The notes under the pieces were generated by a model. That model was not told the DNA's origin, made no database searches, and was given only the letters and a program-made list of their open reading frames with translations. Source: an uncultured Planctomycetales bacterium (GTDB lineage: Bacteria > Omnitrophota > Gorgyraeia > Gygaellales > Profunditerraquicolaceae). From it: a DNA stretch of 64,000 bases. The translations under genes and the position numbers were made by a program. Shown piece after piece: positions 1 through 62,365 of the stretch. The stretch spans positions 179,513-243,512 of the forward strand of contig CAZRVK010000002.1 of assembly GCA_964603585.1 (NCBI GenBank). The letters run 5' to 3'. Position 1 is the first letter of the stretch; every line of letters begins with the position of its first letter.

Positions 1-357
1 TATTATTTTATCGACAACCGGATCACCGTAAAAACCGTTGGTGATCATAATCACGTTCCTTGCGTTTTGTTTTGCGTAATCAATGGCTTCGAATATCCCC
101 TCATATAAAAACGGCTCCCCTCCGGTCAAAACCAAATCCGGGATATCCAGCTCTACCATTTCGTCAATGATGCTCTTTATCTCTTCTACCTTGATCTCAT
201 ATTCTTTGTTAAACTCGAGGTTCTTTATCCCGCACATAATACAGTGTTGATTGCAGAGATAATTAATGGTCAATGTTACGTTACGGGGAGGAAACAGCGG
301 CCAGTCGATTTTCTTAGAAATGAAATAACGTATGCGCTCTTTATTCTTTTTTTCCAT
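1..357 (-). CDS. radical SAM protein (partial; C-terminus lies beyond window start)
   Basis: Reverse-complement translation from ATG at 357 gives MEKKNKERIRYFISKKIDWPLFPPRNVTLTINYLCNQHCIMCG... with CxxxCxxC (CNQHCIMC) and a GGEPFLY glycine-rich SAM motif. Not in the ORF track because it is truncated by the window edge. Confidence 0.6.
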   Translation of the reverse strand, partial: MEKKNKERIRYFISKKIDWPLFPPRNVTLTINYLCNQHCIMCGIKNLEFNKEYEIKVEEIKSIIDEMVELDIPDLVLTGGEPFLYEGIFEAIDYAKQNARNVIMITNGFYGDPVVDKII

Positions 358-26760: not shown

Positions 26761-29177
26761 TTCCCCTCTAAAACTACTCTCTCTTTAATACGTTTTGCCA
26801 GCCCTTCAAAAAAGGCCTTAAAATCCCGATACTCTTCAATCTCAACCACATTCTTTTTTAATTCCACTTTCTGTTTAAAATATATCCGCCCATCACGCAC
26901 GTTGTATTCGGCATTAAAGCGTATCCAGGGGGTATCATGGCTGATCCGTTCAGGCATATATTTTACACCGAAATCCTTTGGGATTGCAACTTCAAAGATT
27001 GTTTCTCTGGCATCCAAAAAATTGAAATTTAACGGATACTTTCTTTTTTGCCTGGCAACCAAAGAGGCGTCGATACTGGTCATCTGTGGCATGATCCGCA
27101 GGCGGCCTGCAGAAATGAAATACTCCTGCCCTTGGAAATCATAATTCAACTGCACCGGTAAATTAAGATCATCGAGATTCCTGATATCATACGTCATCAG
27201 CTGTGACCCAACAGATATATCCTGTATCTTTTCATTTAATGACTCTTTGATCAACTCCGGGGGAGTATACAAAAGCCAATGTCTTTGAGCCTGGTCATAA
27301 ACCCCGGAGGTGGACACATTTTTTCTGGCGGTAATCCCGCCGTTTTGGCTAAGTGCAATATCCAATTTATGTTGAATAAAATTATGCTCTGCGGGATATA
27401 ACGGCGTATTCTGGATCAAATAGGCATCATCTTTACAGATCAAAACGCGCCGCGCCTGATCATCTACCGGCAAATCGCCAAAGGAACAGGTTTCTGCGGT
27501 CGGGTCCATAAAAATCATTTTCTCTCCCAAAGCCACTATGGCGATACAGTGGTTAAAAAGCATGCCCGGGAAATCGTCCCTTAAGTTATAACAATCCCGG
27601 GTAGGGATAAGCACCGGCCAGCTATCGTTGATTGCGGCTTCTCTCAGCATGGTCACCAAAAGTATCGCCTGATCCTTGCAGTCTCCATATTTATTCTTGA
27701 AGATATCAGCGGCAAAATGCGGTTCATACCCTGCCTGCCCATATTCAACCGCGACATAACGGATATCCTTGGCGCAAAAATTATAGATCGCGCGGATCTT
27801 TTCCTCATCACTTTTCTTATCCCGGATCAATTCAGCTACTTTATTCTTTATTGCCGTATCCGCCGTTATCTTATCTTTCGCCAAACCCCACCACCAGGCA
27901 TAAATCTCCTGCCAATTTGCAAATGTCGAGAACAAAAGAGAAGGATTGATCTCTGCATCTGGAGGCATATTAGGTTCCGGGATGATCTGCGGGATATCCC
28001 TGAATTCCCAGGAATAACTGATCTGTGTTGGAGACTCTTGTATTTTGGGATCGGGTTTGGCGGAAAAATCGTTAAATCTTTCATTGATATATTTCAGATG
28101 CAATGGTTTTTTTCTGGGAAGGACCAGCTTAAAATTAGCCGAGATCACCGGGTCATAATTCTGTAGAGGGTAACTAAAAACAAACTCTTTCTTGTTGATC
28201 AGTTCATTGCGAGTGATTTTCAGCTTGTATTCCAAAAATACCCCTTCGCTGATCTCCGGGAAAGAAATTATCCGGACCCTGGCGTTACTATAAAGCGGGA
28301 AATTCAGGTATTTTGAGACATCCCGAATATGCCGGGATCCCACATCCACTACAGTTCCATCTGGTTTGACTGTGCGGGCATACACTATCTCAACTTTTTC
28401 ATAAGTAGAGTCGTACTCGATCCTGCTTTCGGAAAAATTCCCTTTTCCCCGCTCGTTGAGGATCTTTATCAGATAATGCATCGACGAAACCTGCCGGTTA
28501 TCCTCGGTTACCTCGATCTTTTCATCGGCCAAAAGTATCAATGCCCCTGCCTGGGGATAGGCTTCTTCGGATGGGCTGTTCTTGATCAGATCATAAATAT
28601 CCCTGTCTATCTCCTGTATTTTAAGAGGGCTGGCTTGTTTTTCTATTGAATTTATCCTTTCTAATGCCTGGATATTGAATGGTTCGTCTTTGATGGTGCG
28701 GTAAATAGCTAACGCCTGATCAAAAAGATTCAATTTTTCCATAACTAATGATTGATAATAACGCGCCTCGTCATCCTGGGGAGGATTTTTAGAGAATTGC
28801 TCTGCGGCACCAGCAAAGTCGGATAAACGGTAAGAAGCAATCGCCAGGAATTTCTTTGCCTGCGGCAGGCGGGAAGAATCGAATTCCTTGCGCGCCTTAA
28901 TAAATTCTCCGTGATTAAAATACAACATCCCTAATTCAAAATGCGCCCGGTCCAAACCTGATCCCTGCCTGACCAGGGACTGATACTCTTTTTCTGCCTT
29001 ATGATAATACTCCTGCGAAAGCTTTGCTTGGGTTTGTGCCTTTTGTAAATCCGTATTATCCCTGCATCCGGATAAAATCGTACATCCTATCCATAAGAAT
29101 AACGGTAGTACGGACAGGGCATTACCCGAGGATACCCACCATTTATCTCTATGCCTTGTACACATCGCTATAGGCAT
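26757..29177 (-). CDS. TPR + transglutaminase-like (DUF3857/transglutaminase-core) lipoprotein
   Basis: Lipobox ILSGC after a signal peptide and TPR-like helices. Later a YGDCKDQAILLVTMLREAAI Cys-containing transglutaminase-core-like motif. 806 aa. Confidence 0.6.
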   Translation of the reverse strand: MPIAMCTRHRDKWWVSSGNALSVLPLFLWIGCTILSGCRDNTDLQKAQTQAKLSQEYYHKAEKEYQSLVRQGSGLDRAHFELGMLYFNHGEFIKARKEFDSSRLPQAKKFLAIASYRLSDFAGAAEQFSKNPPQDDEARYYQSLVMEKLNLFDQALAIYRTIKDEPFNIQALERINSIEKQASPLKIQEIDRDIYDLIKNSPSEEAYPQAGALILLADEKIEVTEDNRQVSSMHYLIKILNERGKGNFSESRIEYDSTYEKVEIVYARTVKPDGTVVDVGSRHIRDVSKYLNFPLYSNARVRIISFPEISEGVFLEYKLKITRNELINKKEFVFSYPLQNYDPVISANFKLVLPRKKPLHLKYINERFNDFSAKPDPKIQESPTQISYSWEFRDIPQIIPEPNMPPDAEINPSLLFSTFANWQEIYAWWWGLAKDKITADTAIKNKVAELIRDKKSDEEKIRAIYNFCAKDIRYVAVEYGQAGYEPHFAADIFKNKYGDCKDQAILLVTMLREAAINDSWPVLIPTRDCYNLRDDFPGMLFNHCIAIVALGEKMIFMDPTAETCSFGDLPVDDQARRVLICKDDAYLIQNTPLYPAEHNFIQHKLDIALSQNGGITARKNVSTSGVYDQAQRHWLLYTPPELIKESLNEKIQDISVGSQLMTYDIRNLDDLNLPVQLNYDFQGQEYFISAGRLRIMPQMTSIDASLVARQKRKYPLNFNFLDARETIFEVAIPKDFGVKYMPERISHDTPWIRFNAEYNVRDGRIYFKQKVELKKNVVEIEEYRDFKAFFEGLAKRIKERVVLEGK

Positions 29178-54995: not shown

Positions 54996-56837
54996 TTATT
55001 CCACTGTAACCGATTTGGCCAGATTCCTCGGCTGGTCCACATCACAGCCTCTCCTGACCGCTATATAATAAGCCAACAACTGCAGTGGGATCACCGCCAC
55101 AAGAGGAGAGAAGAATTCATTGGTTTTAGGGATATAAATGACTTCCCGGATCAAATCTTTTACCTTTTGATCCCCGCAGGTAGCGATAGCAATGATCACG
55201 CCTTTACGTGAACGGATCTCCTGTATATTGGAGATCATCTTCTCATAAACCCGGGAATCAGGTGCAACACAAACCACCGCACGATATTCATCGATCAGTG
55301 CGATCGGGCCATGCTTCATCTCGCCTGCAGAATACCCTTCCGCAGGAATATAAGAAATCTCTTTTAACTTCAGCGCCCCCTCTAAAGCCAGGGGATAATT
55401 GATATTCCTGGCTAAGAATAAAAATGACCCGAAATTATGGTGTTTCCGAGCCGCACTTTTAATGACATCCTGTTTCTTTAAAACCTGCTCCTGTATTTTT
55501 GGGATTAACTGCATCTCTCCCAGCAGCCGCAAGATTTTCTCATGAGGAAGTGTTTTCTTTATCTGCGATAAAAACAAGGCGAAAAGGTAAAGGATGCTTA
55601 ATTGTGCGGTAAAAGCCTTTGTGGATGCGACCCCGATTTCAGGCCCGGCATGAGTATAAATCACCCCGTCGGATTCCCTGACCAGGGTTGAACCAAGAAC
55701 ATTACAAATGGTCAGGGACAACGCCCCTTTTCTCTTAGCCTCCCTTGCCGCAGCAATTGTATCAGCGGTTTCTCCGGACTGACTGATGGATATAACTAAA
55801 TCGCTTTTATTCACAATCGGATTCCTGTATCTAAACTCGCTGGAAACATCTACGCTTACCGGCAAGGCGCAGATCTCTTCAAGGATATATTTACCGCAGA
55901 GCCCGGCATGATAAGCGGTCCCGCAGCCAATGATAATAATGTTTTTTACCGCCGCTATTTGTTCCGTGGGGACCTTTAATTCTTCAAAACAGATCTGCGC
56001 CGATGATCCCGCCAGCCTCTGCTTTAATATCCCTTCAAGCACTTTGGGCTGTTCATGGATCTCCTTAAGCATAAAATGCGGCCAACCTTGTTTCTGTGCT
56101 TGAGAGACATCCCAATTTATCTTCACAACCTCTCTTTTTACCTGTTCACCAGCAAGATTAGTGATTTTCACCCCTTGGCGGGTTAAAGACGCCAGTTCAT
56201 TGTCTTCTAAAAATATCGCCTCTTTCGAAAAATCCAATAAGGCCGGTATATCCGAGGCAATAAAATTCTCCTCATCCCCTAACCCGACAACTAACGGACT
56301 TCCTTTTCTGGCACCGATCAATTTCCCGGGATCTTTTACGGAGATCACCCCGATGGCAAAAGAACCCTCTAATTTTAAAAGCGCCTTTCTCACTGCTTCT
56401 TCGAAAGACACCCTTGCGGAATAGAATTTCTCGATCAGATGAACAATGACCTCTGTATCGGTTTGGCTTAAAAACCTGTGCCCCTCTTGAATCAACTCTT
56501 TTTTTATTTTAGAATGGTTTTCTATAATTCCGTTGTGTACCAGGCCGATCGTGCCGTGGCAATCCAAATGGGGGTGGGCATTAATCTGATTAGGGGCTCC
56601 ATGAGTAGCCCAACGGCAATGTCCTACGCCGATACTACCAGCAAGCGGTTTAGACTTAAGAAGTGTTTCTAATTTTTTAACTTTTCCGGGAAGTTTTCTT
56701 GAAGAAAGGGCTTTTTTTTTATCTATGTAGGTGACCATCCCGCAGGAATCATATCCGCGGTATTCCAATCTTTTTAACCCGTCCAAAAGAAGTCCTGCAG
56801 CTAAACGATGTCCGACATATCCGACGATTCCACACAT
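54996..56837 (-). CDS. glmS: glutamine--fructose-6-phosphate aminotransferase
   Basis: N-terminal MCGIVGYVG (Ntn amidotransferase Cys2), two SIS domains. 613 aa. Confidence 0.95.
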   Translation of the reverse strand: MCGIVGYVGHRLAAGLLLDGLKRLEYRGYDSCGMVTYIDKKKALSSRKLPGKVKKLETLLKSKPLAGSIGVGHCRWATHGAPNQINAHPHLDCHGTIGLVHNGIIENHSKIKKELIQEGHRFLSQTDTEVIVHLIEKFYSARVSFEEAVRKALLKLEGSFAIGVISVKDPGKLIGARKGSPLVVGLGDEENFIASDIPALLDFSKEAIFLEDNELASLTRQGVKITNLAGEQVKREVVKINWDVSQAQKQGWPHFMLKEIHEQPKVLEGILKQRLAGSSAQICFEELKVPTEQIAAVKNIIIIGCGTAYHAGLCGKYILEEICALPVSVDVSSEFRYRNPIVNKSDLVISISQSGETADTIAAAREAKRKGALSLTICNVLGSTLVRESDGVIYTHAGPEIGVASTKAFTAQLSILYLFALFLSQIKKTLPHEKILRLLGEMQLIPKIQEQVLKKQDVIKSAARKHHNFGSFLFLARNINYPLALEGALKLKEISYIPAEGYSAGEMKHGPIALIDEYRAVVCVAPDSRVYEKMISNIQEIRSRKGVIIAIATCGDQKVKDLIREVIYIPKTNEFFSPLVAVIPLQLLAYYIAVRRGCDVDQPRNLAKSVTVE

Positions 56838-56883
56838 GATTATCCTGCTCCATTCGCCAGAACACCAAAAACATGCTAATTAT

Positions 56884-57100
56884 TTATGTCCCCACGGGGA
56901 TTTTTAATGAGGCCATAACTTACGGAATGAGCGCAGCGAATGAACGTAAGTTATTTGGCCGAATTAATCCCGCGCTTTAGGCGGGAGAACCCCGGTCGAG
57001 AGCTTGTCCCGCATCCCGCTGCTTAAATACCTGATGCGGGATCCCGCTCATCTCCTCAAAACTGCCGGAGCGGGAAAAAGCTCTTGTCCTACCTTATTTA
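56884..57100 (-). pseudogene. 5'-truncated second copy of tRNA-Glu(UUC), interrupted in the anticodon loop and T-loop by two hairpin-rich insertions
   Basis: Minus strand GGACAAGAGCTTTT[~70 nt TCCCGC...GCGGGA]CAAGCTCTCGACCGGGGTTC[~85 nt TCCCGCCTAAAGCGCGGGA...]AAATCCCCGTGGGGACA. Removing the bracketed segments reproduces nt 25-75 of the intact tRNA-Glu exactly. Both copies are followed by TAAATA. Confidence 0.6.
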
Positions 57101-57175
57101 TGTCCCCACGGGGATTTGAACCCCGGTCGAGAGCTTGAAAAGCTCTTGTCCTAGACCAGGCTAGACGATGGGGAC
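57101..57175 (-). tRNA. tRNA-Glu (anticodon UUC)
   Basis: Reverse complement GTCCCCATCGTCTAGCCTGGTCTAGGACAAGAGCTTTTCAAGCTCTCGACCGGGGTTCAAATCCCCGTGGGGACA. 7-bp acceptor, anticodon loop TTTTCAA. Starts 4 nt after the gyrA stop. Confidence 0.85.
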
Positions 57176-57179
57176 GGAT

Positions 57180-59609
57180 CTATTCTTCCTCGGCGATCAC
57201 CGGGGCGACACAAGAAACCCTGTCTTTGTCCTGCAGCTTTATCAACCGCACCCCTTGAGCAGACCTGCCGGTTGTACGTATATCTTTGATCGCACAGCGC
57301 AAGAACATACCGTTTTGCGTAATAACCATCAATTCATCATTATCGCTTACCGCTTTGAGATTAACCGCTGCCCCGTTTTTCTCGGTAACTTTTATATTAA
57401 TGATTCCTTTACCGCCGCGGCTGGTCAAGCGATACTCTTCTATCGGGGTCCTTTTAGCAAAACCAAGCTCGGTGACCGTCAATATAGACGCTTCTTTTTT
57501 AGCCAGCACCATATCGATCACAGCGTCTTTTTTATCCAAGGAAATGGCGCGCACTCCGTGTGCCGCCCGCCCCATATCCCTCACCTTCATCTCCGGGAAA
57601 TGAATCGCTTTTCCCTGCCTGGTGGCAATTAATAACTCCAGGCTACCGTCGGTAAGCTCAACGCCGATCAATTCATCCCCTTTATCCAAAGTGATCCCGA
57701 TAATTCCTGCCTTGCGCGGGTTACCGTAAGCATCCAGCCGGGTCTTCTTAATCTGGCCTTGACGCGTTACCATCACCAAATACTTGTCCGGGGAAAATTC
57801 TTTAACCGGGATGGTAGAGCTTATTTTAGCTCCGGATTCCATTTCTATCAAGTTAATTATTGCCTTGCCTTTAGAAATACGGCTGGCCTGCGGGATCTCA
57901 TAAACTTTAAGCCAATGCACCTGGCCTTTATCCGTAAAAATTAACAGGTAATCCTTGGTAGAAGCGACAAACAGGTGTTCTATAAAGTCCTCATCTTTCA
58001 CCTCCGCCCCGCTGGATCCGGTACCTCCGCGTTTTTGTTTACGATAGGCGCTTACCGGCAGGCGCTTGATATATCCTGCGTGGCTGATAGTTACCACCAC
58101 ATCTTCTTCGGCGATCAGATCCTCAACCTCTAACTCCTCAACCTCTGCAACAATATCCGTACGTCGAGGATCACCATATTTCTCTTTGATCAGCGTCAAT
58201 TCATCTTTTATGATCCCCTCGATCTTTTTTTCGGAAGCCAGTATTGCCCGGCAGGCTTCGATCTTTTTCAAAAGCTCGAGATATTCGGCTTCGATTTTAT
58301 CTCTTTCCAGCGCGGTCAACCGCTGCAGTTGCATCTCCAATATCGCCTGCGCCTGGATCTCTGAAAGTTCGAATTCTTTCATCAACCGCTCTTTGGCATT
58401 CTCGGTATTCTTGGAGGTTTTGATCACTTTGATGATCTGATCGATAAATTTCAAAGCGATCTTCAATCCTTCCAGGATATGCGCCCGCTTAAGAGCTTTA
58501 TCTAATTCGAATTGAGTCCTTCTGCGAATGATCACCTTGCGGTGCATAATATAGGCATCGAGGATCTGCCGCAAATTCAAAACCCGGGGGCGGTTTTCTA
58601 CCAGGGCCAGCATAATGATCCCAAAGGTGCTTTCCAGCTGGGTGTGCTTGAAAAGCTGGTTTAAAATGATCTGTGATTCCACATCCCGTTTCAGCTCAAC
58701 AACAATCCGCATCCCGTCTTTATCCGATTCATCCCGGACATCAGAAATGCCTTCGATCTTTTTTTCATCTACCAGACTGGCGATGTTTTCAATGATCCCG
58801 GATTTCTGCACCTGATAAGGGATTTCCGTGATCACAATAAGATCTTTATTGTTTTTTTGCCGCTCTACCGTTGCCTTGGCCCGTACCGTAAGCTTGCCCC
58901 TGCCCGTCATATAGGCGTCTTTGATCCCACCTTTACCGCAAATTACTCCCCCTGTGGGAAAATCCGGACCCTTGATGTGCTTGATCAAATCCTTGATCTC
59001 TGCGGCAGAATTATCTAAAAGATAAATTATCGCATCCGCCACCTCATTTAAATTGTGCGGGGGGATATTTGTTGCCATGCCTACGGCAATACCACTGGAG
59101 CCATTGACTAAAAGATTTGGCAAGGCCGCCGGTAAAAGCAACGGTTCCTGTAAAGAAGAATCAAAATTAGGCCCGAAGTTTACAGTCTCTTTATCTATAT
59201 CTGTCAGCATTTCATTGGCGATGGCAGAAAGCCTTGCTTCGGTATAACGCATGGCTGCGGCAGAATCCCCGTCGACCGAACCAAAATTACCCTGGCCGTC
59301 GACTAAGGGATACCGCAATGAGAAATCCTGCGCCATTCTGACCAAAGTATCATATACCGCTACATCCCCATGGGGGTGGTACTTACCCAGAACCTCCCCT
59401 ACGATACGGGCACATTTTTTATAAGGCTTGGAGTGGTCAAGATTTAATTCCTGCATCGCATAAAGTATCCTGCGATGCACGGGTTTTAAACCGTCCCGCA
59501 CATCAGGCAGGGCCCGGCCAACAATGACGCTCATCGCATAATTAAGATATGCGTCTTTGACCTCATCCTCTATATATATCGGCATGATCTTTTCGTTTCG
59601 CGTATACAT
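57180..59609 (-). CDS. gyrA: DNA gyrase subunit A
   Basis: 809 aa. Active-site region [10 protein letters not shown] with catalytic Tyr, QRDR-like ..[17 protein letters not shown]... C-terminal beta-pinwheel repeats. Confidence 0.95.

Positions 59610-59645: not shown

Positions 59646-62365
<2,720 letters not shown>

Follow-up and report, generated by a model that had tools for sequence, protein, structure and literature searches.

A 64,000-nucleotide stretch of DNA from an uncultured Candidatus Omnitrophota bacterium (contig CAZRVK010000002.1 of assembly GCA_964603585.1; the whole stretch is called the window hereafter) carries an intact tRNA-Glu(UUC) gene followed at once by a 5'-truncated second copy of itself, which is split by two hairpin-bearing inserts and lies upstream of glmS. 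We consider it likely that this locus is a non-functional tandem duplicate of the tRNA that has been colonised by nested, non-autonomous, selfish palindromic DNA resembling the Rickettsia palindromic elements (RPEs). The first insert belongs to a family of double-hairpin (2hp) elements that is dispersed in Omnitrophota genomes, inserts cleanly, is tolerated in proteins and in RNA-like loops, decays in old copies and is enriched in tRNA fragments. In the window locus itself the element is probably without function for the cell. The features of the locus are as follows, in window coordinates.

57101..57175, minus strand: intact tRNA-Glu(UUC), 75 nt (ARAGORN; Rfam RF00005, 60.6 bits)
57094..57100, minus strand: trailer TAAATAA of the intact tRNA-Glu, first copy of the duplicated flank (direct repeat D1)
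57076..57091, minus strand: pseudo-tRNA block A, tRNA nt 23-38 (repeat D4; 100% identical)
57007..57075, minus strand: insert 1, the 2hp element, 69 nt, between anticodon nucleotides 35|36
56987..57006, minus strand: pseudo-tRNA block B, tRNA nt 39-58, from C36 to T-loop C56 (repeat D2; 100% identical)
56904..56986, minus strand: insert 2 as a whole, 83 nt, between T-loop C56 and A57
56968..56986, minus strand: part 1 of insert 2, solo hairpin TCCCGC-CTAAAGC-GCGGGA (weak match, 11.7 bits, to the covariance model R1 described below)
56904..56967, minus strand: part 2 of insert 2, a long-hairpin (LH) module (same fold in 9 other loci)
56903..56887 and 56886..56880, minus strand: pseudo-tRNA block C, tRNA nt 59-75, and its trailer TAAATAA (repeat D1; 100% identical)
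54996..56837, minus strand: glmS, 613 aa, the downstream gene (translation; Pfam GATase/SIS on an identical contig)
57180..59609, minus strand: gyrA, 809 aa, the upstream neighbour (list of open reading frames (ORFs) and Pfam families on an identical Logan contig)
59646-62081, minus strand: gyrB, further 5' of gyrA

The gene order on the minus strand is gyrB, gyrA, tRNA-Glu(UUC), the interrupted tRNA copy and glmS, with the copy lying entirely between tRNA-Glu and the glmS start codon. An earlier note on this DNA had described a truncated tRNA-Glu duplicate with two insertions and a duplicated 3' flank, and exact-repeat analysis together with a script bears this out. The copy consists of tRNA-Glu nt 23-75 plus a 7-nt trailer in three collinear blocks, all 100% identical to the intact gene, and TAAATAA follows both copies. 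The note had given the copy as nt 25-75, of which the end at nt 75 stands and the start moves to nt 23/24. Block A covers the 3' strand of the D-stem, the 5' strand of the anticodon stem and the loop as far as U35, and the GGT that precedes it (57093..57091) may correspond to tRNA-Glu nt 19-21 with a 2-nt deletion. The spacing between the intact tRNA-Glu and its copy is only 3-10 nt. The placement of both inserts cannot be shifted, and neither is flanked by a duplication of its target. In the simplest history, 64 nt (nt 19-75 and the 7 nt that follow) would have been duplicated in tandem, after which the 2-nt deletion and the two insertions would have come. The pattern TCCCGC-N3-30-GCGGGA occurs four times in the window, always at this locus, against an expectation of 0.10. 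The earlier note had taken an absence of such elements elsewhere as a sign against its reading; they are indeed absent from the remainder of the window but present elsewhere at the scale of the phylum. The whole region folds more stably than shuffled sequences (z = -2.95), and a search of 56780-57260 against Rfam, at the gathering threshold and at E<=10, returned no match besides tRNA, with the glmS ribozyme and known glmS leaders unmatched.

The 2hp element is about 60 nt long and consists of two adjacent hairpins whose stems start with TCCCGCC and end with GGCGGGA. Insert 1 is a bona fide member of the family. Its two adjoining hairpins, TCCCGCTC/GAGCGGGA (57075..57042, 8-bp stem) and TCCCGCATC/GATGCGGGA (57041..57007, 9-bp stem), have the form 5'-TCCCGY...RCGGGA-3' with stems of at least 6 bp and loops of 14-32 nt, and the flanks of the insert (CTTTT|CAAGC) fit the family's TTN|NAA. 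Covariance model R1, which was built from 57 metagenomic 2hp copies with the window sequence excluded, gives insert 1 a score of 43.2 bits (E=5e-11), its sole strong hit in the 64 kb. R1 also matches window 27320-27399 weakly, within an ORF of 810 aa; the fold of this segment is unconvincing and the match was taken as chance. The minimum free energy fold draws insert 1 as a single rod-like hairpin, a structure that we rejected because the stem extensions pair inside each half (TC/GA, ATC/GAT) and the seventh pair covaries family-wide. Hammerhead, twister and bulge-helix-bulge intron readings of the inserts were also discarded on inspection of the sequence, as the conserved unpaired core is absent and the ends are closed hairpins.

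The family was ascertained on intact stems in one metagenome scan with the pattern TCCCGY-N14-32-RCGGGATCCCGY-N14-32-RCGGGA, which found at least 120 stretches, with 122 matches listed. Two perfect stems of at least 6 bp are present in 101 of the 122 listed matches. Once the copies are oriented by all-against-all comparison, one hairpin is variable and the other tends to TCCCGCC-u-GCTAT-nnn-ATAGC-uu-GGCGGGA. The seventh stem pair, which the search pattern leaves unconstrained, covaries (CG 28, UA 12, UG 6, AU 3, unpaired 6). Wherever the host was checked, which applies to few metagenomic loci, it was Candidatus Omnitrophota, as indicated by glmS relatives, LeuRS relatives and the synteny of locus L144 with the window. 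No Rfam 15 family matches the elements (gathering threshold and E<=10; the region plus 20 element-bearing loci), with tRNAs, rRNAs and one tmRNA as the only hits, and literature searches with a 12-14-mer palindrome and with Omnitrophota plus repeat terms returned nothing relevant; the family is apparently undescribed. The counts of G.U and A.C mismatches are symmetric across copies and are uninformative for reading the RNA strand. A phage origin was set aside on a single hit among 2.9 million viral contigs, as was an autonomous copy at L138, where the 2 kb between two nearly identical copies encodes no transposase-like ORF. As a separate observation, L048 (8386-8460) and L054 (8403-8460) carry strong 2hp-type copies at the same position, with a first stem CCCCGCC/GGCGGGG, inside a conserved segment (GGGACCCTG ... 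TGGCTTTG) that is neither tmRNA nor any Rfam family.

In 66 oriented copies the flanks read T-T-(T/G) | (A/C)-A-A, with T at -2 in 57/66 and A at +2 in 58/66, and complementarity of the -1/+1 bases is more frequent than shuffled sequences give. Further out than ±3 nt, the complementarity of the flanks does not exceed shuffled controls. The idea that every copy occupies the loop of a hairpin in the host sequence was dropped: among 58 non-tRNA copies only 10 have a host stem of 5 bp or more, and the outer complementarity is at control level, so no such stem is required. Association with tRNA genes is strong, with 35 of the 122 listed copies within 400 nt of an intact tRNA, spanning 15 isotypes (P=3e-16 relative to the tRNA density of the window). 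The same holds for 676 kb of Omnitrophota glmS loci that were not selected for carrying the element, where seven of nine copies lie within pieces of the adjacent tRNA-Glu or tRNA-Arg (P=7e-8). The recurring insertion points in tRNA are 35|36, 55|56 or 56|57, and the D-loop. Copies downstream of a tRNA interrupt a 3' fragment in its T-loop (55|56 or 56|57), copies upstream of one interrupt a 5' fragment in its D-loop or at 35|36, and the fragments reach 7-8 nt past the tRNA end. When the element was removed in silico, none of the 122 listed copies left a complete tRNA at the insertion site. Long direct repeats flank 17 copies, of which 11 are in a tRNA context, so such repeats are not intrinsic to insertion. 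A tRNA-Tyr / tRNA-Gly cluster is represented by two loci: in L196 a 5' fragment of a tRNA-Gly(UCC) with a 'GCACAGAGGAAGTGC' D-arm has 2hp at 35|36 and lies upstream of an intact 'GTTCAATGGTAGAAC'-type gene, and in L188 the alleles are arranged the opposite way, and the fragment has its D-loop and its anticodon loop each occupied by 2hp. This reciprocity suggests tRNA allele replacement.

Copies also occur within protein genes. In-frame 2hp copies of 60 or 63 nt, a 20-21-codon addition to conserved proteins, were found in LeuRS, a GlgC-like nucleotidyltransferase, a RimO/MiaB-like enzyme, MurB, TatD and CobT. One Pfam domain match runs across the insert in GlgC, TatD and CobT, the FAD-binding match of MurB is split around it, and in LeuRS and RimO/MiaB it lies between domains. 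LeuRS orthologues without the insert are 795-800 aa long and read ...RIQDN-L-KEKAD..., those with it are about 820 aa long and read ...RIQEN-FPAKHSEERAGSRHATGEAGRE-KENAD..., and all that are named belong to Candidatus Omnitrophota. In the underlying DNA, the empty site reads AAC CT|A AAA (N-L-K) and the filled site AAC TT[63 nt]A AAA, with no duplication, and the orthologous filled copies include mutated stems such as GCGGAATCCCGC and TTGCGCC. These 20-21 extra residues enter marker proteins that are used in Omnitrophota phylogeny. Another palindrome family, CCTGCC..GGCAGG, whose translations include ..PAGRQ.. and ..AGRK.., was seen in LeuRS sequences P0004, P0020, P0027, P0071, P0081, P0083 and P0088, in the LH apex of L103 and in the spacers of L198/L017, and more short inserts, such as AKNIGGPATYCGGD, occur at other sites of Omnitrophota LeuRS. 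Omnitrophota genomes of this kind seem to carry several families of in-frame palindromic inserts.

Insert 2 combines a solo hairpin of the same type with the LH module, a long hairpin that pairs over 4 + 5 + 9 bp and is interrupted by a 2x2 internal loop and an AA bulge. In the window LH reads TTAATTC-GGCCAAATAACTTACG-loop-CGTAAGTTATGGCC-TCATTAA. In its general form T(T/C)AA(T/C)TC is followed by 4-5 bp, by a 5' bulge of 1-2 nt and by 9-10 bp up to an apex that varies, and TC(A/G)TT(A/G)A comes last. The nine other loci with this fold show compensatory stem differences (GGCC/GGCC, GGAC/GTCC, CGGC/GCCG, GCAC/GTGC), and the pairing of a TCCCGC hairpin with LH recurs in L019, L024, L026, L103 and L189. 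Nesting is evident, with 2hp copies inside the LH loops of L103, L109 and L131 and the different palindrome CCTGCC..GGCAGG in another LH apex. LH also occurs near gene starts (L004 3942-4000; L013 3945-4000; L189 2302-2360; L103, minus strand, 977-1048). It stands directly against the ATG, with no Shine-Dalgarno sequence, in L004 and L013 (glmS) and in L189 (LpxD-like), and 11 nt ahead of a PurS-like start in L103. LH may be a mobile 5' untranslated region (UTR) or translation element, or else gene starts may be its preferred targets.

The glmS loci of related Omnitrophota place the window locus in context. The closest GlmS relatives are 75% identical and belong to Candidatus Omnitrophota, and among 80 related loci a tRNA-Glu lies upstream of glmS in 35, at a distance of 8 nt to 2.4 kb. 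The large gaps contain a membrane-protein gene and no integrase or mobile-element genes. Partial tRNA-Glu copies with TCCCGN...NCGGGA hairpins in the T-loop occur in L004, L012, L015 and L026, copies interrupted at both the anticodon loop (35|36) and the T-loop in L019 and L024, and an interrupted D-loop of a 5' fragment upstream of tRNA-Glu in L018. L019 matches the window architecture block for block with a GlmS that is 67% identical, and all its hairpin loops differ. The closest glmS relatives, L002 and L075 (75% identity), are without the tRNA fragment.

Other arrangements ahead of glmS were also observed. In L016, L021, L028, L029, L036 and L053 the end of tRNA-Glu lies 8-19 nt before the glmS start codon, and the 5' end of the glmS mRNA there probably derives from tRNA 3' processing. 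A different conserved leader, 100-125 nt before glmS, is present in L022, L023, L031, L034, L035 and L075; in order, it comprises a long hairpin closed at its base by TCCCG..CGGGA, TTTCGCTAAAT, another hairpin, which is GC-rich, and AGGAGTGTGCTCA, after which comes the ATG, and L002 has 3-4 tandem copies of a similar hairpin+CGCTAAATAAAAAC unit. This is a possible unrecognised regulatory leader. In the tRNA-Glu position of L003 (75-149) ARAGORN calls a tRNA-SeC(tca) with a changed anticodon stem and T-loop (AAGATCT, GGTCCAAAT), which may be a degenerating tRNA-Glu. In L011 (3735-3792) and L015 (543-575) the anticodon arm of a partial tRNA-Glu copy is swapped for a CCCCGCC-(AAG/ATCG)-GCGGGG hairpin, which may represent the 2hp stems' relative in solo or collapsed form. 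In the window, a sigma-70-like match (TTAAAA-17 nt-AATAAT, 9/12) at 56879-56907 on the minus strand is made up of the LH end, the 3' block of the pseudo-tRNA and the duplicated trailer; going by this consensus match, insertion into the locus may have made a promoter-like site for glmS.

Several other explanations of the locus have to be weighed against a colonised, decaying duplicate. An assembly artefact, in which repeat-containing reads were collapsed or joined chimerically, is very improbable. Two Logan SRR15237810 short-read contigs from the same genome match the window at 100% and end at 57148 and 56976, which leaves the interval with insert 1 without independent assembly support. However, one end (57148) falls in the tRNA core, a sequence that many of the metagenome's species have in common, and the other (56976) in the solo hairpin; LH, block C and glmS are confirmed base for base by L001, the architecture is also present in the independent and unrelated Omnitrophota assemblies L019 and L024, and insert 1 is a canonical 2hp member. 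Elements of this kind do break short-read assemblies at tRNA loci and yield pseudo-tRNA signals. The earlier note had also raised the idea of intron-like insertions, whereby a second tRNA-Glu gene would carry the inserts as introns in non-canonical places, to be removed from its RNA. Thermoproteales tRNAs have introns at non-canonical positions, the anticodon-loop and T-loop sites recall such archaeal introns, and the exon blocks are perfectly conserved. Yet the copy is without nt 1-22, ARAGORN calls no tRNA after in-silico removal of the inserts even in intron mode, a complete tRNA is found around none of the listed family copies, the insert ends are closed hairpins with no bulge-helix-bulge geometry, and the same element is translated in frame within proteins instead of being removed. 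The intron reading is effectively refuted, and we give it next to no probability.

Two further alternatives concern the origin and the role of the copy. A relic of tRNA-targeted integration, which the note had likewise proposed, fails for the inserts, which have no flanking core repeats, and survives as a rival for the duplicated 3' segment. It would be an attR-type remnant from which the integrase-bearing element was later deleted, with the palindromic inserts arriving afterwards. Attachment-site duplications in tRNA genes usually extend from the anticodon-arm region to the 3' end plus flank, and the copy spans just this part with 7 nt of flank. Additionally, in L170 identity is limited to the acceptor 3' strand and trailer (18 nt), with a T-arm from a different tRNA-Glu allele; compensated T-stem differences fit a xenologous origin, and the tRNA-Glu-to-glmS gap varies greatly among relatives. 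We nevertheless regard this origin as quite unlikely, given that the copies are 3-10 nt apart, that no integrase or cargo occurs in the window or in any large-gap locus, that only one viral contig carries the element, and that tRNAs have 5' fragments on their upstream side as often as 3' fragments on their downstream side, which integrases restoring the 3' end do not predict. The tRNA-like fragment and hairpins could instead form a functional structured RNA co-transcribed with tRNA-Glu. It would be a module for processing or stability, or would regulate glmS as its 5' leader; the note, too, had raised a leader or processing function. The proximity of tRNA-Glu upstream of glmS means that transcription of the tRNA probably runs on into glmS. 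The complete architecture is common to the window and L019, with stems intact and loops diverged, and the LH fold is kept by compensatory changes and abuts or nears gene starts. The orientation of the element is also biased relative to tRNA transcription, and the low folding energy of the region points the same way. Such a function is unlikely all the same: 2hp is not glmS-specific, occurring in at least six unrelated conserved proteins, beside 15 tRNA isotypes and elsewhere; the nearest glmS relatives have no fragment; the mismatch counts show no strand asymmetry; orthologous LeuRS copies decay; and there is no Rfam hit. Moreover, the fragment is without the 5' acceptor strand and so cannot form a tRNA-like substrate alone.

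The reading that we prefer, a tandem tRNA duplicate colonised by selfish palindromes, is also the one among the earlier note's proposals that has held up, in that insert 1 belongs to a dispersed family that behaves selfishly in the manner of small palindromic elements. Under it, the 3' two-thirds of tRNA-Glu (about nt 19/23-75 plus the 7-nt trailer) would have been duplicated in tandem, insert 1 is one 2hp copy, and insert 2 is a solo hairpin of the same type fused to an LH repeat. The 2hp elements insert cleanly between TTN and NAA, without target-site duplication, and orthologous copies then decay. They may be mobilised in trans by an enzyme that would recognise the hairpin ends, and tRNA loops would be favoured targets (T-loop UUC|RAA, anticodon loop YUNN|NAA, D-loop). 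Insertion into the only copy of a tRNA gene would be lethal and the survivors would be redundant or partial copies beside an intact gene, which would be why an intact gene and an interrupted fragment always stand side by side.

A number of observations weigh against this history. No transposase or mobilising gene was identified, with no search aimed at transposases made, and no near-identical copies at different loci, a sign of recent bursts, were seen. The single 2hp copy in the 64-kb window means that the element is not abundant. The tRNA-Glu-linked copies, which were found by glmS homology with no ascertainment on stems, keep their stems intact though their loops have fully diverged, and this would also fit selection on structure. 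Of the 16 copies downstream of a tRNA, 15 point the same way with respect to it, which could mean a role at the RNA level and fits strand-specific insertion equally. Between a fragment and the tRNA next to it, the T-stems frequently show compensated pair differences (L091, L175, L170, L198), which simple decay of a local duplicate does not explain, and some fragments, such as that of L166, are not simple tandem duplications. Stem conservation, orientation bias, compensated T-stems, the L188/L196 pair and L166 keep alive both an RNA-level role and the alternative that 2hp reflects a process that targets tRNA loops and regenerates its essential target, with insertion coupled to local or xenologous duplication. 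Insertion would then take place into single-stranded, cloverleaf-folded tRNA DNA at 35|36, 55-57 or the D-loop, and the coupled duplication would leave an intact tRNA beside the interrupted fragment. We think this unlikely, but if true it would represent a new class of miniature mobile element. It would explain why fragments flank 15 isotypes on the side that matches the loop hit, as well as the compensated stem-pair differences and the reciprocal tRNA-Gly alleles of L188 and L196. The precise and recurrent insertion into all three tRNA loops is a natural data set on how hairpin elements choose their targets, and it bears equally on the duplication, replacement and degradation of tRNA genes.

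Comparison with known systems helps to place the family. Attachment-site duplications of tRNA 3' ends by tRNA-targeted integrative elements resemble the locus in having an intact tRNA followed by a direct repeat of its 3' part and flank; here, however, integrase and cargo are absent, simple insertions break up the repeat, and upstream 5' fragments occur too. Mitochondrial hairpin elements, such as the double-hairpin elements of Allomyces and the GC clusters of yeast, occupy intergenic, protein and rRNA sites and have no known function (PMC2800124). They share with 2hp a double-hairpin architecture and both intergenic and intragenic locations, but are organellar and unrelated in sequence. To our knowledge, no link between them and tRNA-gene fragments has been reported. 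Repetitive extragenic palindromic (REP) sequences, together with bacterial interspersed mosaic elements (BIMEs) and REPINs (REP doublets forming hairpins), are GC-rich hairpins of 20-40 nt, often in doublets, that go with cognate RAYT (Y1) transposases; an orientation bias is common to them and 2hp. The 2hp copies differ from REPs and REPINs in having no GTAG/CGTC tag, in carrying direct instead of inverted hairpins, in lying inside ORFs as well and in their low copy number, one per 64 kb here. Palindrome-associated transposable elements (PATEs) derived from IS200/IS605 likewise lack target duplication, have a hairpin in direct orientation at each end and show strand or orientation bias. Their hairpins are subterminal, whereas those of 2hp are terminal with 14-32-nt loops, and no TnpA was found with 2hp, no transposase search having been made. 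A PATE goes in 3' of a fixed tetra- or pentanucleotide on one side; the flanks of 2hp are T-T-(T/G) on the left and the mirror image, (A/C)-A-A, on the right, which suggests a palindromic target. The MITEs of bacteria (miniature inverted-repeat transposable elements) likewise are small and non-autonomous, with 7-bp terminal inverted repeats (TCCCGCC...GGCGGGA in 2hp), nesting and in-frame fusions. Unlike them, 2hp shows no target-site duplication in the window or in LeuRS, and no related insertion sequence or transposase was found, none having been specifically sought.

The closest likeness in behaviour is to the RPEs, short palindromes that lie in frame in unrelated housekeeping proteins, where they are tolerated, with no known transposase and with old, decaying copies (PMC10969869). 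Like them, 2hp elements are short, noncoding, dispersed palindromes that occur in frame in unrelated conserved proteins and decay. As a family they qualify as the same kind of element by virtue of the in-frame palindromes, with the window copy itself lying in a tRNA fragment. The likeness is one of behaviour; membership of the RPE families themselves entails homology to RPE-1..10 and a Rickettsia host, and the hosts here, wherever checked, are Candidatus Omnitrophota. In addition, 2hp elements are shorter (~60 nt as against about 100-150 nt) and are set apart by two hairpins side by side, the conserved TCCCGCC/GGCGGGA stem and a strong tie to the loops of tRNA fragments. Overall, the 2hp family would extend RPE-like selfish palindromes to the essential protein genes and RNA-like hairpins of an uncultivated phylum.

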